From a bacterium (GTDB lineage Archaea > Thermoplasmatota > Thermoplasmata > Lutacidiplasmatales > UBA184), in assembly GCA_027309555.1 (NCBI GenBank), contig DAIDCO010000001.1, positions 13,036 through 77,035 of the forward strand: a DNA stretch of 64,000 nucleotides, written 5' to 3'. The notes under the pieces were generated by a model that worked only from the letters and a program-made list of their open reading frames with translations, was not told where the DNA came from and ran no database searches. Position 1 is the stretch's first letter, and every line of letters begins with the position of its first letter. Below are positions 11,124 to 36,181 of the stretch, piece by piece. The position numbers and the translations under genes were made by a program.

Positions 11124-11284
11124 TACGAACCTCGAGGGAGCGAGACCAAGGCGGAATCCCCATCGGCGGCGGCTCCCCGCGGCCGAGCATAGTTCGCGAC
11201 CGATCGGGACTCGGGCAGCAATGGGGAACGGAGCTTCGGGATTCTTCCGAGACTCCCAGGCCCAACTCGATGCGATGCCTCCCT

Positions 11285-11764
11285 TCAGGGGGGCGGCCGA
11301 GCCCGCACCGGCGGGTCGGTGGGCGACGAAGAGGTAGGAGCGAGAGGGGGGGCGTCGTCGATCCACGAGCGCGACCCCAGACCGCGCCCCAGACGCTCGA
11401 ACCAAGAGCCCGGTACTGGAGTGTCGGGTCTCCGGGGCCCCACCGGCGCGAAGGAGGCGGTAGGTCTTCCCCCCGCGGTGGGCCCCTCCGCCGGGGCGGG
11501 TCGTAGAGATACGAGGGCCTGGTACGACGTGTACACGCCCGCGGTAAACAGAAGCATGCTCAGAAAAGCCATTCCGATGGCCGCCAACGAGTGGGGAACG
11601 ACGCACACCGTCGTGCCGGGTCCGTACGAGATCGGAATGCAGAACGTGAACAGCACGACCGCGGCGATCGCGCTCGCCGCAGAGAACACTATCAGGAAGA
11701 TCGACCCGAGGGCCCAGCCGTAGAACTCGCGGAGTGGAGGAAAGGCCGACGGGCGCTCGCTCAT
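11285..11764 (-). CDS. hypothetical small membrane protein
   Basis: ATG at 11764 (MSERPSAF). Three hydrophobic helices are followed by a P/G/R-rich tail. The tail may be non-coding read-through. Confidence 0.4.
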   Translation of the reverse strand: MSERPSAFPPLREFYGWALGSIFLIVFSAASAIAAVVLFTFCIPISYGPGTTVCVVPHSLAAIGMAFLSMLLFTAGVYTSYQALVSLRPAPAEGPTAGGRPTASFAPVGPRRPDTPVPGSWFERLGRGLGSRSWIDDAPPLAPTSSSPTDPPVRARPPP

Positions 11765-11904
11765 CGCTCGAGCTGCGACCTCGGGAATGCGACGGCGAAC
11801 CCCAGCGTGCGCGCAGGGTGGGAACCTCCCTCGACCGCGGGGGGCCCGGCGCGGCTCCGAGAGGGGCGAGACGTCGGAAGGCGTACACCCCGGCGGTTGC
11901 CCGC

Positions 11905-12230
11905 CGGAGCGGCCAGGTGGTGGTAGTAAGCCCCTTTCGGTTTCAGGCAGCATTCGACTGCGCGCTCTCCTCGACGGTCAGGGAGACTCCTCATCCCGTC
12001 CCTCAGGGCTTGCTCCCGGGGAGTCGGCCGTTTCATCATATCCCGATGGAGCCTCCGATGCACCATCTTCACCGTCCCATCGGGCTGTGTCGTTTCTGCT
12101 CCGGAGCTCGGACTCTCGCCCGTCGGGCTCCCACCCGACCCCGTGTCTCCCGGAGAGGGGACTTTCCTCAGCGGCCGGCCGTTGCCGGCTCGGTCCACCG
12201 TCAGCTGCCCTCCACCTCCTGGCGGGCCGG
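11905..12230 (-). ncRNA. rnpB: RNase P RNA (archaeal type A)
   Basis: The minus strand reads ...GCCGGCAACGGCCGGCCGCUGAGGAAAGUCCCCUC..., a P3-like hairpin plus the universal CR-I GAGGAAAGUCC. Downstream come ...AUGAAACGGCC... and ...GAAAGGGGCUUACUACC... (CR-IV/V-like GGCUUA). 5' GCCAGGAGGUGG (12212-12223) pairs with 3' CCACCACCUGGC (11912-11923) as P1/P2. No plausible ORF. Ends are approximate. Confidence 0.75.
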
Positions 12231-27203: not shown

Positions 27204-27593
27204 TCATTCCGTGGCGATCGGCGGCCCGGCGTGAAGCGCTCGACCGAAGGCCACGAACCCGGTGAGGGCGCACTTGATCCGAGCGGGCGAGAGCGGGATC
27301 CCGAGCATCTGGAAGACCGAATCCCGGTCGAGGCGACCCGCCTCTTCGAGCGAGAGCCCGCGGAGCTTCTCGGTCAGCAGGGAGCTGCTGGCCACGCTGA
27401 TCGCGCAACCGTCCCCCTCGAACCGGACCTCGTCGATCCTCTGCGCCGCGTCATCGACCTTGAGGCGCATCGTGATGTGGTCACCGCAGAGCGGATTCGA
27501 CTCTTCCCCGACCCGATTCGCGCCCTCGAGGGGGCCGAAGTTCTTCGGGGTCCGGTAATGCTGGAGGATGACCTCCTGGTACATGTCGTACAT
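27204..27593 (-). CDS. sufU: SufU/IscU-type Fe-S cluster scaffold
   Basis: LQHYRTPKNFG, NPLCGD, GDGCAIS and KCA motifs. ATG at 27593 (MYDMYQ). The first six codons lie in or next to the attL repeat. Confidence 0.85.
   Translation of the reverse strand: MYDMYQEVILQHYRTPKNFGPLEGANRVGEESNPLCGDHITMRLKVDDAAQRIDEVRFEGDGCAISVASSSLLTEKLRGLSLEEAGRLDRDSVFQMLGIPLSPARIKCALTGFVAFGRALHAGPPIATE
27576..27590. repeat. attL core (CTGGTACATGTCGTA)
   Basis: Exact copy of the 15-mer at 31735-31749. On the minus strand it encodes YDMYQ of sufU. Confidence 0.6.
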
Positions 27594-27759
27594 CGTCAGG
27601 GAATCACTGTTACCCAAGTCAAACCGACCTCATAAGCGCACTCTCGGAGCTTACCTCGTGGACCACTAAGTTACCAACCCTTTCGGCGGGGCCCGGGGAA
27701 CCGGGTCCCGTTCTTTGTTTCATCTGCGGGATGGAACACACCCTCGGAGGACCGTGCCC

Positions 27760-28020
27760 ATGAGCGGTCCCCCGCCTCCCTCCTGGCCGACTCCCCAGCG
27801 TGGGAACGAGGGCTATCGGTGCGGAACTTGCGGTCACCGGGTCAAAACCCACTGGTACGATCGGGCGGACTCCCGGTTCCGAGACCACCCTCGGACGTAC
27901 TGGTGCCAGATTTGCGGAGCCTACTGCCCCGATGAATCGGTCCTGACCCCGCGCGCCAAGGCGGCTAGGGAACGATTCTCACGAAAGCCACAAGGGTCCG
28001 GAGCAGGGGGGGCCCTATGA
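27760..28020 (+). CDS. element ORF, zinc-ribbon protein
   Basis: ATG at 27760. Has CGTC-x23-CQIC. Its stop overlaps the next start (ATGA). Confidence 0.45.
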   Translation: MSGPPPPSWPTPQRGNEGYRCGTCGHRVKTHWYDRADSRFRDHPRTYWCQICGAYCPDESVLTPRAKAARERFSRKPQGSGAGGAL

Positions 28021-28145
28021 CCGTCTTACCCCGCCCCCTGGCCTTCCGGGAACGCGGGATCCGGGTATGCCCCCGGTGTGCTAAGCCGTTCTTTGCCCGC
28101 AATTTGGACTGGCACGTTAGAAAAGCCCACGGAGGCAAGCCGTGA
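28017..28145 (+). CDS. element ORF, 42-aa C2H2 zinc finger
   Basis: Below the ORF-track length cutoff. Product is MTVLPRPLAFRERGIRVCPRCAKPFFARNLDWHVRKAHGGKP (C-x2-C-x11-H-x4-H). It has an ATGA overlap upstream and a GTGA overlap downstream. Confidence 0.4.
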   Translation: MTVLPRPLAFRERGIRVCPRCAKPFFARNLDWHVRKAHGGKP

Positions 28146-28528
28146 CCGGTTGGTCCTGGTTGGACCGCTACCTTCCGCCCGGGCCAATCCGGGAGGGCGG
28201 CCGCCATAACACGTTAGTCTCCTTCGCCGGGAAACTCCGATACCGGGGGACGGATGAAGAACGCATAGTATCGATACTTTCGGAGGTAAACCGGGATCGG
28301 TGCGTGCCTTCTCTTTCCGACCTTGAAATCCGAACCATAGCCCGTACCGCCTCCTCTCGCCCACCCACGGTAACAGACGACAACCCTAGCCGTCCCAGAT
28401 CGCCGCATACTCACCGTTTCCACTTCTTCAACCTTGATGCGCCGGGCCCCTGGGAAGGGGTCCCATGTCTCGACTGTACCGACCCAGTCCCACCAATGGA
28501 CCTAGGAGACATTCCACGATTTTGGTAA
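28142..28528 (+). CDS. element ORF, PriCT-1-like (primase C-terminal) domain protein
   Basis: GGRHNTLVSFAGKLRYRGTDEERIVSILSEVNRDRCVPSLSDLEIRTIARTA matches the PriCT-1 pattern G.RN..L...A..L...G......I......N.....PL...E. Confidence 0.55.
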   Translation: MTGWSWLDRYLPPGPIREGGRHNTLVSFAGKLRYRGTDEERIVSILSEVNRDRCVPSLSDLEIRTIARTASSRPPTVTDDNPSRPRSPHTHRFHFFNLDAPGPWEGVPCLDCTDPVPPMDLGDIPRFW

Positions 28529-28865
28529 AGTAGCAGCATCAACCCCTTCGGCGAAAGCCGGGTGGCCCGCTGTAGGTGCCCGGTGAGTATCGATCCGCAT
28601 GGGGCGAACGGGAGCGGTAAGCAGTCCGCACCGGGCCTCTTCAGTGAGGGATACATGCGGACAATCGGGACGGTCAAGGAGCCTTCCGCCGCAGTTTCCG
28701 AGGTCCCCAGGAGGGGACCAAGAGGGGGGAGGCTATCGCCGGTCAAATAACTTGGACCGAAGGACAAGCCCCATCGTAGGTTAGGTATTGATATGGTTTA
28801 GAAGGGCTCGTAACAGAATCCTTAGAGTAAACAGAATACTTATGTAACTCTGTGTTATAGGGTGT

Positions 28866-29561
28866 ATGATGGCAGACACCGGGTGCCTCATATGCGGAAA
28901 AGACCTGAGCCGAAGCGACGCACTACTCCGACACCGGCGAGAGCAGCACGGTATCTTGGACATAATCGACAATCTCCCTCAAGGTCGGTACTGGCCTGAA
29001 TCGGCGGAGCCACAAGCGACCGCCCGGGAACAGATCGCCCTATCGAGATGGGAGCTGGGAGTCGCCGCCGAGCTAGAACGACTCAAGTCCGACCCTTCCC
29101 TGGTAACCGTCCCGGTTCATCCTAGCATCAAGGCCGACCCGAGACTCTACAATGGGCTTCTTGAGAACCTTTCCAAAGCTCACTTTACATCGGACGAAGG
29201 AGTCGATGCCGGGCACGTTGAACGACTCAATCGACGGATCGCCGACTTTCACCGAATCGAGGGAGAGCATCGGAATTTTCATCGTCAGATCGTAACTGCC
29301 GGCGGACCTCAGGGGTCAACACAACGAAACAACGTCAACCTCGGTCCACGTCACGCCGAGGTTCACCGGCTTCTAGGCCTACCTGGGACTCCCGACAATC
29401 AATGGAATTCCTGGATTGGGCATACCCATTTCTCCGACGGCACAATCACTTTCATCCCACGACCTGCGCCGCCTAAGTCTGTAGAGGAACGCAACCAAGA
29501 CGACCTGAGCGAACTACGCCGCGAGGTGGCAGCACTCAAGGCCAAGCTGGTGGGTGTCTGA
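28866..29561 (+). CDS. element ORF, C2H2 zinc-finger protein with C-terminal coiled coil
   Basis: CLICGKDLSRSDALLRHRREQH (C-x2-C-x12-H-x4-H) at the N-terminus. Preceded by an AT-rich region. Confidence 0.55.
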   Translation: MMADTGCLICGKDLSRSDALLRHRREQHGILDIIDNLPQGRYWPESAEPQATAREQIALSRWELGVAAELERLKSDPSLVTVPVHPSIKADPRLYNGLLENLSKAHFTSDEGVDAGHVERLNRRIADFHRIEGEHRNFHRQIVTAGGPQGSTQRNNVNLGPRHAEVHRLLGLPGTPDNQWNSWIGHTHFSDGTITFIPRPAPPKSVEERNQDDLSELRREVAALKAKLVGV

Positions 29562-29707
29562 TGACTGGTCGGAAGAAAGCCCGGCGGCCTGGTAAGGGGG
29601 CTAGTTGGATAGCTGAGTTACCAAGAACCGTCGGTCGTTTCGCTCCCTCCGGCAGCGGGTCTGTAGAATACGGTAAACTGAAGGTCAAAGGCCGAGCGAG
29701 AGGATAG
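29561..29707 (+). CDS. element ORF, 48-aa basic protein
   Basis: Below the ORF-track cutoff. The ATG overlaps the upstream TGA (TGATG), and its TAG directly abuts the next ATG. Confidence 0.3.
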   Translation: MTGRKKARRPGKGASWIAELPRTVGRFAPSGSGSVEYGKLKVKGRARG

Positions 29708-29893
29708 ATGGGGCGACCTCCGTCACGATGGGTGATTCATCTTCCTGACGCTAGCTGCCCTAACTGTAGGCACCGCCTAAAGGTCTCTTACAATGGGGGC
29801 TGGATTAAAATCTGGGCTGCTCCAAAAGGCCGCCGTAAGTCTGCGGGTTTGTCTAAGAATAGTGTTGTGACACCTGACAGCCCGGGGGACTGA
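29708..29893 (+). CDS. element ORF, small CxxC protein
   Basis: 61 aa with CPNC. Its stop overlaps the next start (TGATG). Confidence 0.4.
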   Translation: MGRPPSRWVIHLPDASCPNCRHRLKVSYNGGWIKIWAAPKGRRKSAGLSKNSVVTPDSPGD

Positions 29894-30027
29894 TGCCGCT
29901 CTTTCCCAACTTGGAGGAGCTGGCCGCCCGCATGGAGGCCGTCCATGCTCAGGACGTCGAGCGGGAAGAGCGGAAGATCGCGTTGCTCCAGGCCATACTG
30001 GATGAACTGAAACGAGGGAACGAATGA
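29893..30027 (+). CDS. element ORF, 44-aa helical protein
   Basis: Below the ORF-track cutoff. Product is MPLFPNLEELAARMEAVHAQDVEREERKIALLQAILDELKRGNE. It has an ATGA overlap with the next ORF. Confidence 0.35.
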   Translation: MPLFPNLEELAARMEAVHAQDVEREERKIALLQAILDELKRGNE

Positions 30028-30479
30028 CGGTCGAGTGTGAATCTTGTGGCCGTTCGTTCAAAGGAGCAGGTGGTCTCGACTATCACCGGTCTTGGTGTAA
30101 GGGTCCCTCACCCGCGCATGGTACGCGCGCGCGTGACGTACGCGTAGAGAAACCCGCTTCTTCGCCCGAGCTGATAGTTCATTCGCCAGACTACCCAAGG
30201 GGTCGAGTGAGCGGTGGGACCACTTGGGACCTAGTCGACCGCATTCAATCCCAGGCCCAAGCCCAGGCGGAGCCGAAGCCGGTTCCGAAGCCGGGTCTAT
30301 TCGACCACTGGGGTGTTGTCGGGGGCCACCACCGCAAGACCGTTTTGGAGGTTCCTCCCGCGGCTCCCGCCTACGTCTCGCCGGAGTCTCTTTCCTCCCT
30401 GGGGTGGAACGGGAGACTCCGCCGAGCCATTGGCCGGAACGACCGAGATCGGAGACGGAGTTTCGGATTTCTGAAATGA
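30024..30479 (+). CDS. element ORF, C2HC zinc-finger protein
   Basis: CESCGRSFKGAGGLDYHRSWC (C-x2-C-x12-H-x3-C) at the N-terminus. Confidence 0.5.
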   Translation: MTVECESCGRSFKGAGGLDYHRSWCKGPSPAHGTRARDVRVEKPASSPELIVHSPDYPRGRVSGGTTWDLVDRIQSQAQAQAEPKPVPKPGLFDHWGVVGGHHRKTVLEVPPAAPAYVSPESLSSLGWNGRLRRAIGRNDRDRRRSFGFLK

Positions 30480-30809
30480 AGAGGCAGAGTCCAATGCCCT
30501 TTGAAACGTCGAACCGAGGAACTTTATACGAAGGTTCCTGTCATCCATCGAAGGTCCGGAGGTCTACACGGATGCGGCAAGAGTTTAGATTCGCTTCGTC
30601 TTGACAAAGATCGGAGCGGGGGCTCCGACCGAGCGTAGACCCTCGGTCGTCCCCTGCGCCCTTCTCGTTGAAGTTTCTCCCATCAGTGCCGGGGGGCGGC
30701 CTTCGGGCCGACCTACACCTGCCAACCCCGGCCGGGAGAGGGAGGCATGGATTAGAGAGCGATTTTCCACCTCGATACGCTAACAGATTCTTCGACAAGG
30801 GAGACCACT

Positions 30810-31694
30810 TTGACCTCGCAAGAGGAGTGGTGGTCCAAGAGAGCAAGAGAGTACACGCAGTCGAAGCGAGGAGCCAGCGACCGATGGAAGCGGACCACCT
30901 ACAACCTGCTACGAAACCTCGCAGTAGATGGAAGGAAGCCCGCGATCTTTACTCGGTCGTCCATCTCCCCACTTCCCCACGGCCCCTCGGAAGTCACCGA
31001 GGAGCAAGTGCTGGCCGTCAAGCGATTCGGAGTAGAGACCTACACGCCGCCGAGTCTCCGGGGGCTCCTATGGGGCTTCCGGGACTTCTTGGCGTGGGAT
31101 GGAAACAAGATCGCCAAGGACGATACGTTGTGGCTGTGTCCAACCGGGGACCCGATTCATCCTCGGTGGCTGTCGGCCCAGCACTTGGGCGACCTACTCC
31201 GCGCAGCGGTCGGGAGGGAACGCCCGGTCTGTGCTCTCCTCGGTACGTGCGGGCTTCGGAGTATCGAGGTATGGCGACTCCGATACCGGGATGTAGATAT
31301 GGACCTAGCCCACCCGACGCTCCGGGTTTGGGGGAAGGGCCGGTCCGGAGGGAAGTGGCGGACGGTCCCGCTTTCGAAGATCGCGTGGACCGAGCTCCTA
31401 CCGTTTGTCGAGGGGAAGAGACCCGAGGACCGCATACTACCGTGGGCGCTCGTCACGCTCCAATTGGACGTGAGGACCGCAGCACGGAGGGCGGGCCTGG
31501 TGGCTTCTACCCACGACCTACGGCGGTCGTTCGGCCGCGTGGCCTTCAAGGACGCGAAGGTGCCCCTGACGACCATACAGAAAATCTACGGGCACGCCAG
31601 CATCGACACGACCATCCGGTATCTGGGACTCAACCTCGACGACATGACGGATGGGATCGCCGCGTTCGACCGCGTTATGGCGGAGGTCGCGTAG
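30810..31694 (+). CDS. tyrosine recombinase / integrase
   Basis: Catalytic pattern GLRSIE (R), GKGRSGGKWRTVPL (K), HDLRRSF (H-x-x-R) and GHASIDTTIRYL (H...Y). TTG start. It reads toward attR. Confidence 0.9.
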   Translation: MTSQEEWWSKRAREYTQSKRGASDRWKRTTYNLLRNLAVDGRKPAIFTRSSISPLPHGPSEVTEEQVLAVKRFGVETYTPPSLRGLLWGFRDFLAWDGNKIAKDDTLWLCPTGDPIHPRWLSAQHLGDLLRAAVGRERPVCALLGTCGLRSIEVWRLRYRDVDMDLAHPTLRVWGKGRSGGKWRTVPLSKIAWTELLPFVEGKRPEDRILPWALVTLQLDVRTAARRAGLVASTHDLRRSFGRVAFKDAKVPLTTIQKIYGHASIDTTIRYLGLNLDDMTDGIAAFDRVMAEVA

Positions 31695-31755
31695 ATGGCT
31701 CGGGAACAGGGATTCTCCGGCGAGAACCGACATGCTGGTACATGTCGTAGGCCAT
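31675..31755 (-). pseudogene. orphaned 5' fragment of sufU (26 codons)
   Basis: Starts ATG-GCC-TAC-GAC-ATG-TAC-CAG (MAYDMYQ), then diverges into element DNA and stops. It lies ~35 nt downstream of a TATA-like box (31786-31797). Confidence 0.6.
31735..31749. repeat. attR core (CTGGTACATGTCGTA)
   Basis: Exact copy of the 15-mer at 27576-27590. It encodes YDMYQ of the orphaned sufU 5' fragment. Confidence 0.6.
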
Positions 31756-31860
31756 CGGAACCGCCTCGCATTCCACCACGGGCCTTCGATATAAATCGAA
31801 GCCGTTGCCGTGCGTCGACCGTCGCCCGCGGACCGCCCGAGCGCCTCTCACCCCGCTCAT

Positions 31861-31890: not shown

Positions 31891-33285
31891 ATGGCCCTGA
31901 CGGCCCCCCGTTACTCGGAATGGCTTTCGGCGGAGCAGGTCCACGCCCTCTCGGGTGCGCTCGCCGACCCCGAGGTCTACCGGAAGGCCCGCGCCGAGTC
32001 GTTCGAGCGGTTCCGGGAGCTCCCGCTCGAGCCGAACCCGCTCTACCGGGGCTACGGCTACTTCGCGGGGGTCGACCTTACGGGCATCGAACCCGAGCTG
32101 CGGGGACCGCCGGTCGAGCTTCCTCCGCTGCTCGAAGGGGCCGTGCACTTGGTCCAGGACGTGTCGGGGACCCGGCTCGACCTGCCGCCGGCGCTCGCCG
32201 CCCAGGGGATCAAGGTCACCACCTTGCCCGAGCTCTGGCGGCGCGGGAACGGCGAGCTCCCGGCGTTCCTTCGCGGCGTCGAATCCATCCCGGACCGCCT
32301 CTCCGCGCTTGCGACGACGTTGCTGAACCGCGGGTACCGCCTCGAGATCCCCGACGGCTTTCGCGACCCGGTGCGGGTCCAGGAGCTCGCGATCCTCTCG
32401 CGACCCCACGAGGCCCTCTCCGTCCGGCGCTCCGTCCGGGCCGGGTCGGACGCCCAGCTGCTGATCACGGAGGAGACGTACTCGACCGCAGCGAGCTTCG
32501 AGGGCCAGCGGCTGTATGCGTCGACGACCGACCTCGACCTCGCCGACCGGGCGAAGGTCGTATTTCTAACGGTCCACGCGCCCGACCTGCGCACGGTCTC
32601 GGTCTACCGCCGGTCGGTCACGACGGGTACCGGGGCCCGGATCGCGTGGCTCTGGAACGGCCTCGGCGGATTCCGCACGAAGGTGCGCAACCAGACGATG
32701 CTCACCGGCCAGGGGTCGGCCTCGGACGATCTCCAGACCTTCTATGGGTCGAAGAACCAGTCCTACGACAGCTCGGTGGACGTCACGCACGTCGGGACCG
32801 ACACCCATGCGCAGTCGATCACGCGGGGCGTATTCACGGACGAAGCTCGGGGCATGAGCCGCGGGCTCGTGCGCATCGAAGCGAACGCGCGCAAGACGAT
32901 CGCCTACGTCTCCGAGCACGCGATGCTGCTGTCGCGCGGCGCGCGCTCGGACACGATCCCGATCCTCGAGATCCTCTGTCGGGACGTCAAGGCCACCCAC
33001 TCGACGTCGGTGGCGCCGGTCGACCCGGAGAAGGTCTTCTATCTCGAGTCCCGCGGCCTCGGCCGGGACGAAGCGATCCGAATGATCGGCGAAGGGTTCC
33101 TCGCCTACGTGCACGAACGCGCCCCGATCGCGGGCCTGCGGGAGATCCTGTACCCGACGTTGAGCCGCCGCTGGGAAGGCAAGGACGTTGTCTGGCGGGC
33201 CGGCGAGTATCCCCTGCTGCCGAGCCTGACGGTCTCGGGCACGGACGCCGCGCCCGAGTGGCGGTTCGACGCGAAGCTGCGCTAG
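31891..33285 (+). CDS. sufD: Fe-S cluster assembly protein SufD (SufB/SufD family)
   Basis: C-terminal SufBD beta-helix region (HxGTDTHAQS..., ...KATHSTSVAPVD..., FYLESRGL). ATG at 31891 (MALTAPRY). Confidence 0.9.
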   Translation: MALTAPRYSEWLSAEQVHALSGALADPEVYRKARAESFERFRELPLEPNPLYRGYGYFAGVDLTGIEPELRGPPVELPPLLEGAVHLVQDVSGTRLDLPPALAAQGIKVTTLPELWRRGNGELPAFLRGVESIPDRLSALATTLLNRGYRLEIPDGFRDPVRVQELAILSRPHEALSVRRSVRAGSDAQLLITEETYSTAASFEGQRLYASTTDLDLADRAKVVFLTVHAPDLRTVSVYRRSVTTGTGARIAWLWNGLGGFRTKVRNQTMLTGQGSASDDLQTFYGSKNQSYDSSVDVTHVGTDTHAQSITRGVFTDEARGMSRGLVRIEANARKTIAYVSEHAMLLSRGARSDTIPILEILCRDVKATHSTSVAPVDPEKVFYLESRGLGRDEAIRMIGEGFLAYVHERAPIAGLREILYPTLSRRWEGKDVVWRAGEYPLLPSLTVSGTDAAPEWRFDAKLR

Positions 33286-33676: not shown

Positions 33677-36181
33677 CTATCCGACCGCGCCGGCCATCTC
33701 GAGCTGGATCAGCCGGTTCAGCTCGAGGGCGTAGTCGACGGGAAGCTCCTTTGCGAACTCCGCAAGGAACCCCATCAGGATCAGGTGGATCGCGTCCGAC
33801 TCCGTGAGGCCGCGGCTCATCAGGTAGAAGATCTGCTCCTCCCCGATCTTGCCGACCACCGCCTCGTGGGTGATCGTCGCGTCCTCTTCGTGGATCTCGT
33901 TGTACGGATACGTGTCGGAGCGGCCGGATTCGTCCGGAAGGAGCGCATCGCAGCGCACCGCGGCCTTCACGCCGGTCGCGCCGGGCGCGACGTGGAGGAG
34001 CCCGCGATAGCTCGTTTGGCCGCCCCGGATCGCGATCGACTTCGCGACGATCTTGCTCGAGGTGTCCGGCGCGGAATGGACCGCCTTCGCGCCCGAGTCG
34101 ATGATCTGCCCCTGGCTCGCGAACGCGACCGAGAGGATATCGGCGCGCGCGCCGCGGCCCTTCAGGTAGACCGACGGGTACTTCATCGTGATCTTGGAGC
34201 CCATGTTCCCGTCGACCCATTCGACCAGCGCGCCCTCGTAGGCGACGGCGCGCTTCGTCACGAGGTTGTACACGTTCTTGGACCAGTTCTGGACCGTCGT
34301 ATACCGGACCTTGGAGAACGGCTCTCCGACCACCTCTACCACGGCCGCGTGGAGCGAGTCGGTGGAGTAGATCGGCGCCGTGCAGTTGTGCACCGAGAAT
34401 CCTTTCACGAGGTAGGTGTTGTTATCGCCCGCGACATGGAAGTTGTAGACGTTGCCGTGGTACGGGCTCCGCGAGATCTGCCGGATCGGGACCAGGAAGG
34501 CATCCCCCGCGCGGCGTACCGCCTCGGCGTGCTTTCCCACCTGGTGATAGACCGTGTACATTCGCCGGTGAGAGATCGTCCGCCCGTCCGGCATCGTCTC
34601 GTCGAACGGTTCCCGGACATTGATCGTCGCGAAGACGCCTTGCCGTGCCTGGAGCTCCTGGACCTGGAACGCCAGCTGGCGCGACACCGTCATGACGCGG
34701 TGCACGGTTCCACCGTTTCGGTCGTAGAAGTTGCCGTCACCGTTGTAGTAGGTCGCCAGGAGAATCCGCTGCTTTTCCGGCGGCAACTCCATCACGACCT
34801 TGCTCAGCTGCTTCTGCCCCGCGAGCTTCCCCGCGTGCTGTAGGCAGAACCCGTAGAGCTCCTTCGAGTATACCCCGACGGAGACAGCGTGCTTCTCCGG
34901 TTGCTGGGCCGCCCACGGGGTCTTCCCGGTGAGCTCTTGAATGGCGGCACTGAGCTCCGCGACGAACCGGGTCTCCTCGATGTGGAAGGTAAACGTCACA
35001 GCTTCGCACCCGTTGATCTTCTGTACGCATCCCTCCGAGAGGTAGTACCCCAGGAGCGTGAGCGCGGCGGTTCCGAAGCCGGGCTCGTCCCGCTCCGTTC
35101 GGTTGATGGGGTAGTGGACGAAGTCGCCGGGCTCGAGGTCGCCGGCCGGGATGAACTCCGGGGAGGCCTTCAGCAGCTTCTCCGGGTCCACGTCGGACCA
35201 CTGTCGGTGGGTCCGGTGCCCCGCGACCACCTTCCGGCGAGGAATGCAGTACACCGGGTGCTCTGGGGTCAATTCGAACGCATTCCCGACAGAGACCGGA
35301 GTGATGTGCACGAGCTCTCCATCGAACGGCCGGACCATCGTCTTCTCGACGGTCGTCTCGAGCCCGTCGCTGTTGAGCACGGGCTGGCCGGTCTCGATGG
35401 CCTCGATCGGGGTCAACTGGTCCCCGACCAACACCTCCTCCCCGAGAGGGAGGCACCCTTCGATGTAGTGCACCTTCGCGCCCTTATCGGCAATGATGAG
35501 CGTGCGCTCGAACTGGCCGACGTTCTTGGCGTTGATCCGGAAGTACGCCTGGAGCGGAATCCCGGCATCGACCCCGGGCGGAATGTAGACGAAACTCCCG
35601 CCGGACCAGACGGCGCTGTTGAGCGCGGAGAACTTGTTGTCGTTGTAGGGCACGATCCGACCGAAGTACTTGCGTACGATCTCGGGGTGCTCCTTCACGG
35701 CGGTGTCGGTGTCGCAGAAGAGGACGCCCTTCGCAGAGAGGTCCTCGCGGATCTTGTGGTAGACGGTCCCGCTGTCGTACTGGGCGCCCACCCCGCCGAA
35801 GTACTCTCGCTCTGCTTTCGGGATGCCGAGCTTTTCAAACGTATTCTTGATGTCGGCGGGGAGGTCCTCCCACTTGCGCTTCGTCTCGCCTTCCAGCATG
35901 GGGTTCGCGTAGTAGGTGTAGGAGTCGAAGTCGATCTCGGCGAGGCTCGGGCCCCAGTCCGGCATCGGACGCTCCACGAAATGGTCGTAGGCGCGCAGTC
36001 GGTACTCGAGCATCCAGGACGGCTCGTCCTTGAACTTCGAGATCTGCTCGACGACCGAGCGGCTAAGCCCCTTCGGGATCCGCAGGCGGTAGGTTTCCGG
36101 GTTCTTGAAGTCGTACCGGGTGTAATCGAGGGGCGTGATCTCGTTCGCCTGCGCCATGGTGACCTCGACCAATTCCATCAC
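33677..36181 (-). CDS. sufB: Fe-S cluster assembly protein SufB, interrupted by an intein
   Basis: The SufB sequence is continuous except for a 357-aa insertion inside the conserved YIEG|CTAP motif. The exteins total 477 aa. The start may be ATG 36178 or M9. Confidence 0.95.
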   Translation of the reverse strand: MMELVEVTMAQANEITPLDYTRYDFKNPETYRLRIPKGLSRSVVEQISKFKDEPSWMLEYRLRAYDHFVERPMPDWGPSLAEIDFDSYTYYANPMLEGETKRKWEDLPADIKNTFEKLGIPKAEREYFGGVGAQYDSGTVYHKIREDLSAKGVLFCDTDTAVKEHPEIVRKYFGRIVPYNDNKFSALNSAVWSGGSFVYIPPGVDAGIPLQAYFRINAKNVGQFERTLIIADKGAKVHYIEGCLPLGEEVLVGDQLTPIEAIETGQPVLNSDGLETTVEKTMVRPFDGELVHITPVSVGNAFELTPEHPVYCIPRRKVVAGHRTHRQWSDVDPEKLLKASPEFIPAGDLEPGDFVHYPINRTERDEPGFGTAALTLLGYYLSEGCVQKINGCEAVTFTFHIEETRFVAELSAAIQELTGKTPWAAQQPEKHAVSVGVYSKELYGFCLQHAGKLAGQKQLSKVVMELPPEKQRILLATYYNGDGNFYDRNGGTVHRVMTVSRQLAFQVQELQARQGVFATINVREPFDETMPDGRTISHRRMYTVYHQVGKHAEAVRRAGDAFLVPIRQISRSPYHGNVYNFHVAGDNNTYLVKGFSVHNCTAPIYSTDSLHAAVVEVVGEPFSKVRYTTVQNWSKNVYNLVTKRAVAYEGALVEWVDGNMGSKITMKYPSVYLKGRGARADILSVAFASQGQIIDSGAKAVHSAPDTSSKIVAKSIAIRGGQTSYRGLLHVAPGATGVKAAVRCDALLPDESGRSDTYPYNEIHEEDATITHEAVVGKIGEEQIFYLMSRGLTESDAIHLILMGFLAEFAKELPVDYALELNRLIQLEMAGAVG
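34385..35455 (-). mobile_element. SufB intein with LAGLIDADG homing-endonuclease domain
   Basis: Residues C243-N599. Starts CLPLGEEVLV and ends FSVHN, followed by the +1 Cys (CTAPIY). Internal LLGYYLSEG and YYNGDGNF resemble the two LAGLIDADG blocks. Confidence 0.9.

Follow-up and report, generated by a model that had tools for sequence, protein, structure and literature searches.

A probable 4.1-kb cryptic integrative element at the 5′ end of the iron-sulfur gene sufU in an uncultured Thermoplasmata archaeon

Why do the first codons of an iron-sulfur (Fe-S) assembly gene, sufU, occur on both sides of a block of DNA with foreign composition? The question arises in a 64,000-nt stretch of a Thermoplasmata genome (NCBI GenBank assembly GCA_027309555.1, contig DAIDCO010000001.1, positions 13,036 to 77,035 of the forward strand; hereafter the window). 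An initial annotation, made from the letters of the window without database searches, proposed that an integrative element occupies sufU rather than the more usual tRNA gene. Empty sites in relatives, a colinear rebuilt locus, foreign composition and an intact integrase support this proposal, and we conclude that the window very probably carries a 4.1-kb cryptic, plasmid-like integrative element that entered a Thermoplasmata sufU by site-specific integration, using its own XerA-like tyrosine integrase. As site-specific integrations go, the case is clear but fairly ordinary; what sets it apart is mainly its use of a protein gene's 5′ end. The features on which the argument rests are as follows, with att denoting attachment sites.

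27204–27593, minus strand: sufU, gene for an Fe-S sulfur-transfer/scaffold protein, intact, 129 amino acids (aa) (NifU_N, TIGR01994)
27576–27590: attL core, left copy of the 15-bp repeat (exact match)
27591–31734, plus strand: integrated element proper, 4,144 bp unique, 4,159 bp with one core (composition, absence from relatives)
27594–27759: element-borne noncoding region from the new sufU ATG to the first element open reading frame (ORF), 166 nt (sequence reading, junction comparison)
30810–31694, plus strand: tyrosine integrase gene (int), 294 aa, TTG start, intact, reading toward attR (PF00589, PHROG)
31675–31796, minus strand: orphaned native sufU 5′ end, with TATA box, leader, ATGGCC and a 26-codon stub ORF (translation, homology)
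31728–31747: perfect inverted repeat CGACATG-CTGGTA-CATGTCG, formed by element flank and core (repeat search)
31735–31749: attR core, right copy of the 15-bp repeat (exact match)
31891–33285, plus strand: sufD-like gene, SUFBD core, divergent neighbor of sufU in the empty-site arrangement (TIGR01981)

An exact search confirmed the duplicated 15-mer, CTGGTACATGTCGTA, as two copies whose starts are 4159 bp apart. The window holds no others, even at one mismatch, and the match stretches imperfectly to 21 nt (19/21 identical). The initial annotation had put the chance expectation of such a repeat at order one, which is too low: the window contains 29 exact direct repeats of at least 15 nt, compared to 13.5–16.3 expected under Markov-1 and Markov-3 models. 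Because exact 15-mer repeats are common in this GC-rich window, the repeat alone carries no evidential weight. The argument therefore rests on the position and context of both copies, and on this point the annotation's reliance on context stands. The AT-richer 15-mer CTGGTACATGTCGTA itself occurred twice in 0/100 shuffles. The 29 repeats span 15–19 nt, and their excess lies in G+C-rich coding sequence unrelated to the element.

The block between the repeats is foreign in both G+C and codon usage. G+C is 0.55–0.62 between the repeats compared to ~0.70 outside, and the element as a whole has 0.60 versus 0.69 for the remaining window, which bears out the lower G+C first noticed from single lines of sequence. 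G+C at third codon positions (GC3) is 0.51–0.77 in element ORFs and 0.80–0.94 in host genes. The borders of this low-GC, low-GC3 block are the exact repeat positions.

At the left border, the repeat copy directly follows the ATG of sufU on the minus strand. The product begins MYDMYQEVILQHY and matches Pfam NifU_N (1e-29) and NCBIfam TIGR01994 (99.6 bits, against a SufU equivalog cutoff of 92.5 bits); sufD, an intein-containing sufB, sufS, sufC and a SufR-like regulator are its neighbors. The attL core forms codons 2–6 of the present gene, and the ATG (27591–27593) with everything upstream of it is element DNA. The core encodes Y-D-M-Y-Q, codons 3–7 of native sufU, and with the new ATG supplied by the element SufU now starts M-YDMYQ. 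The coding loss is the Ala-2 codon only, which some relatives naturally lack. Upstream of the new ATG, the first 9 nt of the noncoding region are CATCGTCAG (CTGACGATG in sufU orientation), and a TATA-like CTTATGA lies 36 nt from the ATG, the spacing of the native TTTATA/TTTAGTA boxes of relatives. CTTATGA is thus a candidate replacement promoter for sufU.

At the right border, the repeat copy lies in a reading frame that translates as MAYDMYQHVGSRRRIPVPEPSTRPPP and then stops: MAYDMYQ followed by 19 unrelated codons, 26 in total, antisense to the 3′ end of int. Stranded with it are an ATGGCC start (31750–31755) and a TATA box, TTTATAT (the complement of 31789–31795). To the right of attR the sequence reads GGCCATCGGAAC...TATAAA, a homolog of the leader and TATA box that precede native sufU in relatives, where the distance is the same. 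The initial annotation had claimed that the left copy opens an intact sufU, that the right copy is a truncated M-A-YDMYQ start and that the native promoter was left on the attR side, and all three claims hold; the stranded TATA box and start occupy 31750–31796. The orphaned promoter may damp int expression.

The empty site that this arrangement predicts is found in relatives. Judged by its SufU relatives, the window belongs with uncultured Thermoplasmata represented by metagenome-assembled genomes (MAGs) from soil and peat. In more than 30 related loci, including most of 42 related genome loci, sufU is divergent to a sufD-like gene across a gap of ~130–220 nt, starts M-A-[Y/W/F]-D-M-Y-Q-E and has a TTTATA or TTTAGTA box 33–40 nt upstream. 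The core 15-mer is present at the sufU start exactly in 21/42 of these loci and with at most two mismatches in 39/42. Orthologs of the window's sufD-like gene (7.7e-48 to the TIGR01981 sufD family, below its cutoff) adjoin sufU in relatives and are 54–75% identical. Scanning metagenomes with a degenerate pattern able to match attL, attR, attB or attP returned 12 independent attB-type contigs and one attL-type contig. All 12 attB-type contigs read cgATGGCC, the exact core and GAGGTCAT, with sufD 133–135 nt away.

Removing 27591–31749 from the window rebuilds a divergent sufU–135 nt–sufD locus, with the same gap as in relative L116. The rebuilt locus aligns unbroken across the junction with 21 relatives at 68–75% identity over 413–656 nt, and the element is absent from the relatives' sufU–sufD intergenic region. 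Because the rebuilt locus is colinear with relatives and the attR flank is a homolog of the native leader and TATA box, a chance repeat is excluded. The initial annotation had named two outcomes that would speak against it: relatives sharing the same block at host-like composition and having no empty-site alleles, and a 15-mer unrelated to recombination. We found neither. The reconstructed attB junction 41-mer is GGAGGATGACCTCCTGGTACATGTCGTAGGCCATCGGAACC, and the reconstructed attP junction 41-mer is GAGAACCGACATGCTGGTACATGTCGTACATCGTCAGGGAATC.

Five relatives (L006, L013, L022, L024 and L035) have sufD–sufU gaps of 2.9–4.8 kb, which we considered as possible insertions and rejected. Their G+C and GC3 resemble those of the host, and they contain neither an integrase nor another copy of the core; the gaps therefore consist of ordinary host genes. 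A start at M-YDMYQ was likewise discarded as a marker of occupancy, as relatives with an adjacent sufD (e.g., L005 and L007) naturally start this way. Separately, sufU occurs twice in the MAG YP4.bin112. At L022 it is separated from sufD by 4.8 kb of host-like genes; around L009 no sufD lies within 10 kb, and the ferredoxin gene is 5 kb downstream. The suf region of this MAG may have been duplicated or rearranged, or the bin may be mixed.

The enzyme expected to perform the integration is encoded at the right end of the element. As the initial annotation had it, this is an intact tyrosine recombinase gene reading toward the right repeat. The protein matches PF00589 (1.6e-12, 48 bits against a cutoff of 27.1) and the integrase family PHROG 216 (2.5e-21), and its closest solved structure is XerA of P. 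abyssi, a chromosomal resolvase (PDB 4A8E, E = 7e-10). The catalytic R, K, HxxR, H and Y are complete and align to 4A8E, with GLRSIE, GKGRSGGKWRTVPL, HDLRRSF and GHASIDTTIRY opposite GLRVSE, GGKGGKDRVVPI, HQLRHSF and GHSNLSTTQIY. The integrase does not belong to the chromosomal XerA resolvase class itself, scoring 66.1 bits against the NF040815 cutoff of 220, and its gene lies inside the foreign-composition block. The att core begins at 31735, 40 nt past the integrase stop codon. The full-length int ORF with a core outside it is the arrangement of type II (non-suicidal, pNOB8-type) integrases. No int fragment of the kind left by type I (SSV-type, suicidal) integrases is present at attL, where noncoding DNA is followed by an 86-aa zinc-ribbon ORF.

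Homologs of this integrase are rare, numbering 11 among 5.8 billion clusters. One of them (P0006, 296 aa) is 57% identical and covers 100% of the query. Relatives with genomic context lie at the ends of larger elements that adjoin protein-coding host genes: the 5′ side of a DAO/acetyltransferase gene in L106, the 3′ end of a His_biosynth gene in L108 (and, in another lineage, in L137/L138) and the 3′ end of a class-Ib aminoacyl-tRNA synthetase gene in L111. None of their cargo genes is common to the window's element. No att repeat longer than 13 nt was found in the 10-kb flanks of the integrase relatives L106–L111, and these elements are probably larger than the flanks. We note that the 3′ end of a hisA/hisF-like His_biosynth gene directly follows integrases of two clades, P0007 and P0024 (L108 10014–10697, L137 6550–7149, L138 1303–1989), and could be a further protein-coding att site used repeatedly in Thermoplasmata. 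L108 also carries a second, partial integrase at 11254–11874, across the gene from the first.

The attR core overlaps a 7-6-7 inverted repeat that is also present in the reconstructed attP and is missing from attL and attB; attB has a degenerate left arm only. An inverted repeat of this kind occurs in 1.8% of all 50-nt windows along the stretch. We infer that the arms are candidate core-binding sites for the integrase and that CTGGTA could be the 6-bp overlap for strand exchange.

A second element shows that the site is used repeatedly. In a MAG (JBKQUP01, contig JBKQUP010000002.1; L011) and a Joint Genome Institute (JGI) metagenome contig (L126), a different integrase gene lies directly upstream of sufU (L011 50–1310, L126 1–1410), reads toward it and ends 32–35 nt before the core. 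Its product is 28% identical to the window's integrase over 208 aa and has a similar N-terminal E-x-WW motif. The junction reads ...CTGACGATG joined to TACGACATGTACCAG; its nine element-side bases are the same as in the window's element, with no similarity beyond them, and both contigs stop before the element does. Two integrase lineages in opposite orientations relative to the core thus have a 24-nt attP segment in common. The sufU start thus serves repeatedly as an att site, as a second element abuts the same core and shares these nine bases. Where the host sufU naturally reads cgATG-TAC (L005, L007), the 24-nt segment would match attB over 20 nt rather than 15. A relative of the L011-type integrase, 69% identical, is encoded at one end of a 9.9-kb contig, whose sequence stops ~17 nt short of the expected ATG. 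The L011-type integrase itself belongs to a 99%-identical protein cluster with 12 members in ENA.

Taken as a mechanism, the element's XerA-like tyrosine integrase would recombine attP with attB at the 15-bp core in the first codons of sufU. Strand exchange would take place within the 6-bp CTGGTA, flanked in attP by perfect 7-bp inverted binding sites. Integration duplicated the core and stranded the native promoter, leader and "MA" start at attR beside sufD, and it joined the body of sufU to element DNA supplying a new ATG and, with the TATA-like box 36 nt upstream of it, probably a replacement promoter. The orphaned sufU promoter is predicted to transcribe antisense into int. The element could also excise, and its later replication or transfer would then depend on host or helper functions, perhaps via a stand-alone PriCT-1 protein.

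This protein is one of nine products encoded by the element. The nine ORFs are all on the plus strand and form three units, with overlapping or abutting stop and start codons within units and no pseudogenes. Besides int, which forms the third unit, the element contains:

27760–28020, plus strand: ORF of 86 aa, zinc-ribbon-like, first of a three-gene coupled unit (ATGA and GTGA overlaps; weak Zn_ribbon matches only)
28017–28145, plus strand: ORF of 42 aa, C2H2-like (weak match; gene also called in independent assemblies)
28142–28528, plus strand: stand-alone PriCT-1 protein, 128 aa (PF08708)
28529–28865: noncoding spacer, 337 nt, G+C 0.56 (composition, sequence reading)
28866–29561, plus strand: ORF of 231 aa, with N-terminal C2H2 finger, His-rich conserved body and C-terminal coiled coil (family alignment, AlphaFold)
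29561–29707, plus strand: ORF of 48 aa, coupled
29708–29893, plus strand: ORF of 61 aa, coupled
29893–30027, plus strand: ORF of 44 aa, coupled
30024–30479, plus strand: ORF of 151 aa, C2HC-like finger, coupled

In the first unit, the 86-aa protein recurs exactly in NCBI and Logan assemblies. The PriCT-1 protein scores 6.8e-11 to PF08708 (42 bits against a cutoff of 21.1) and is the only replication-related signature in the element. It is not a decayed primase fragment because all its homologs are stand-alone proteins of 127–136 aa. A primpol-type replicon would combine an archaeo-eukaryotic primase (AEP), PriCT and a superfamily 3 helicase (S3H), and no primase-polymerase or helicase domain accompanies PriCT-1 here. 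One homolog (P0051, 63% identical, also stand-alone) lies elsewhere on the 317-kb contig CAVQKI010000002.1 of a relative whose sufU site is empty (L042), and that genome may hold a related element at another att site.

The 337-nt spacer contains the most AT-rich stretch of the element (~28770–28865) and is a candidate promoter region for the second operon, possibly also an origin. The second unit that follows consists of five ORFs of 231, 48, 61, 44 and 151 aa, with TGATG, TAGATG and ATGA at the junctions of the small ORFs (29561–30479), and a 330-nt spacer separates it from int. The 231-aa protein belongs to a small family, including P0030–P0043, for which a search at E ≤ 1e-3 gave 17 representatives; roughly nine are full length. 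The C2H2 finger is invariant throughout the family, as are six more histidines (HxxxH, HxxxH, HxH). Its AlphaFold (AF2) model has a mean predicted local distance difference test (pLDDT) score of 88.8 and no structural neighbor at E ≤ 0.001 in PDB or BFVD. We considered the H-x-H as the signature of an HUH rolling-circle Rep and rejected it, because a conserved Tyr is missing, the residue between the two histidines is not hydrophobic and no fold matches.

Pfam and PHROGs scans of the nine ORFs, whose sensitivity is limited for ORFs under 100 aa, matched only the integrase, PriCT-1 and, weakly, zinc fingers. They gave no signature of a capsid, terminase, conjugation protein, AEP primase, helicase, Rep or transposase, and no relaxase, origin of transfer (oriT) or mobilization module. 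Rfam assigned no family to the element (a snoRNA-like match at E = 0.52 is sub-threshold), and a tRNA search there found none.

The occupied locus recurs at 99.97–100% identity in L001, L002, L130–L135 and L112–L114, from the MAGs GCA_027309585.1 and GCA_027309545.1, the metagenome assembly GCA_009712145.1 and five Logan runs. Chimeric assembly of the junctions is unlikely because they are reproduced in more than six independent assemblies. Two contigs break near a junction (L003 ends at 27593, L131 starts at 27564, with a 30-nt overlap). We rejected a mixed population of occupied and empty chromosomes as the cause because the attB and attP alternatives would break the assembly graph at 27590/27591 or 27575/27576, not at 27593/27594. 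A better explanation is that co-occurring relatives share 31-mers from the conserved 5′ end of sufU. On the L001 contig (DAIDCM010000086.1), 99.98% identity to the window holds up to 29879; the terminal 55 nt (L001 1–55) are unrelated and come after two nearby mismatches. This end is either an element variant with a different right half or a chimeric contig end.

Several observations weigh against the integrative-element reading. Every contig of the window's strain that we saw is occupied, contig-level searches gave neither an excised circle (attP) nor a same-species empty site, and the restored SufU (MAYDMYQEVIL...) is not in a collection of 15 billion proteins. No replication initiator is identifiable in the element. 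Relatives are absent from IMG/VR, scanned with the integrase, the L011-type integrase and the 231-aa protein, and from PLSDB, searched by blastn with the whole element; the 56 matches of the bare 15-mer in IMG/VR have unrelated flanks and are due to chance. Our statements about promoters, the overlap region and antisense transcription are inferred from sequence only.

Some of these observations would also fit an element that integrated by the same route and has since become an immobilized, domesticated remnant, kept for the upstream sequence that sufU needs from it. Occupied loci are seen in all eight or more assemblies of the strain, with no same-species attB or attP, there is no replicase, and sufU is without its native promoter, which precise excision alone could restore. 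We regard this as a real, if doubtful, possibility. The 15-bp repeats and the attP-type inverted repeat are perfect, no catalytic residue is missing from the full-length integrase, and none of the nine ORFs is damaged; moreover, precise excision would restore a fully native sufU, so that in principle dependence sets no trap. As far as sequence can tell, the perfect repeats and attP dyad, together with the intact genes, favor an element that is recent or still mobile.

A provirus or virus satellite, in which the zinc-finger ORFs and the 231-aa protein are virion or virus-interaction proteins and a helper virus packages the element, strikes us as improbable. Archaeal viruses typically have many small C2H2 and zinc-ribbon ORFs, pSSVi and pSSVx of Sulfolobus set a precedent for packaging by a helper virus, the 231-aa family has a confident model with no known fold, and relatives of the integrase lie in larger provirus-like elements with DUF5131, RecT and HNH genes. 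However, Pfam and PHROGs gave no capsid, terminase or packaging match by which to call a provirus, reading of the ORFs revealed no small hydrophobic protein like the structural proteins of spindle viruses or pleolipoviruses, IMG/VR holds no relative, and 4.1 kb is smaller than any archaeal double-stranded DNA virus known to us. The idea that the 15-mer is a chance match, the low-GC block an island that arrived by another route and the integrase unrelated to the site could draw on the excess of repeats (29 versus ~15 expected, 4–5 of them expected within 10 kb) and is effectively refuted: the repeat coincides to the base with the synteny break against 21 relatives, conserved sufU codons are duplicated and the native start and promoter lie stranded beside one copy, another species has a second element with an integrase that terminates at this core, and the AT-richer 15-mer never recurred in 100 shuffles.

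As a cryptic integrative element, the block has its closest counterparts in the cryptic integrated elements (CIEs) of Thaumarchaeota, which range from 2.6 to 98 kb and have an integrase and att repeats without viral or conjugative hallmarks (Krupovic et al. 2019, PMC6563490). By the terms of that survey, the window's element has an integrase and flanking att repeats delimiting a block absent from relatives and, in Pfam and PHROGs, no virus hallmark, conjugation gene, casposase or transposase. CIE att sites have a median of 17 bp and a minimum of 8 bp, some CIEs lie in protein-coding genes whose lost end is replaced by element-derived codons, and one, CalSub-E1, encodes PriCT-1 as a separate gene (PMC6563490). 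The element resembles CIEs in its integrase, short att, protein-gene target, separate PriCT-1 and lack of hallmarks, making them the closest category. It differs in that its host belongs to the Thermoplasmata, that its PriCT-1 comes without a primpol or S3H gene and that its cargo genes lack relatives at the other loci covered. All protein-gene integrations in the CIE survey (14/14) are in 3′-distal regions (PMC6563490), whereas here the target is the 5′ end of sufU, with exchange of start codon, leader and promoter.

Type II archaeal integrases leave int intact after integration and have attP outside the ORF just downstream, following the lambda paradigm (Badel et al. 2021, PMC8371274). The window's int is intact with attP just downstream, like those of the pNOB8 type, a class assignment set by gene arrangement. 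The same review lists archaeal attB sites inside protein-coding genes (HMG-CoA reductase, a cation efflux gene and AsnC), sufU not among them, and a text search of the literature turned up no account of sufU serving as an att site. Among bacterial integrative and mobilizable elements (IMEs) and prophages, tyrosine recombinase IMEs use the 5′ ends of housekeeping genes "more rarely" than 3′ ends (Guédon et al. 2017, PMC5704250). The window's element is like these IMEs (PMC5704250) in its single tyrosine recombinase, conserved gene end, repeat carrying that end and undisrupted target. Unlike them, it is archaeal, has no relaxase, oriT or mobilization module and shows a promoter architecture of the TATA/B recognition element (BRE) type. 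The Sulfolobus elements pSSVi and pXZ1 are integrative, non-conjugative circles of ~5.7–7 kb with an integrase and few genes; their SSV-type integrases are split on integration and their targets are tRNA genes. The window's integrase, by contrast, is left unsplit and uses a protein gene as its target.

The element adds a cleanly delimited and very small (4.1 kb) integrative element to the near-unknown mobilome of uncultured soil and peat Thermoplasmata. Reports of archaeal targets like this one are few: a housekeeping protein gene entered at its 5′ end, where the element provides the start codon and upstream region. What is noteworthy is this 5′-end target with start and promoter replacement, the second integrase lineage at the site and the very small size. 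About half of the sampled relatives have the codon stretch of the att core exactly, and almost all have it near-exactly; at least two integrase lineages use this core. This conservation fits the reason usually given for mobile elements targeting tRNA genes. The int–attP module (~1 kb plus a 24–35-nt site) is a candidate site-specific integration tool for the Thermoplasmata class, and the stand-alone PriCT-1 and His-rich 231-aa families offer new handles for finding related elements.

A more far-reaching reading combines these points, though we think it rather unlikely to hold as a whole. The first codons of sufU would be a dedicated, recurrent landing pad for several Thermoplasmata element lineages, with integrases as little as 28% identical inserting in either orientation, all with the 24-nt attP segment of CTGACGATG plus core. 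The promoter swap, by which each element would replace the promoter and start of an essential Fe-S gene and assume its transcription, would then serve host control or addiction, and the stranded promoter would act as an antisense regulator of int. If this were true, antisense control of int would couple excision to the iron-sulfur status of the cell.

Two other features of the window were noted in passing. The sufB gene (33677–36181, minus strand, 834 aa) has its N- and C-terminal SufB halves split by an insert matching intein and LAGLIDADG homing-endonuclease families; this insert is an intein and coincides with a G+C dip at ~34.0–36.2 kb. An archaeal RNase P RNA is located at 11915–12220 on the minus strand (RF00373, 197 bits, E = 3e-57).

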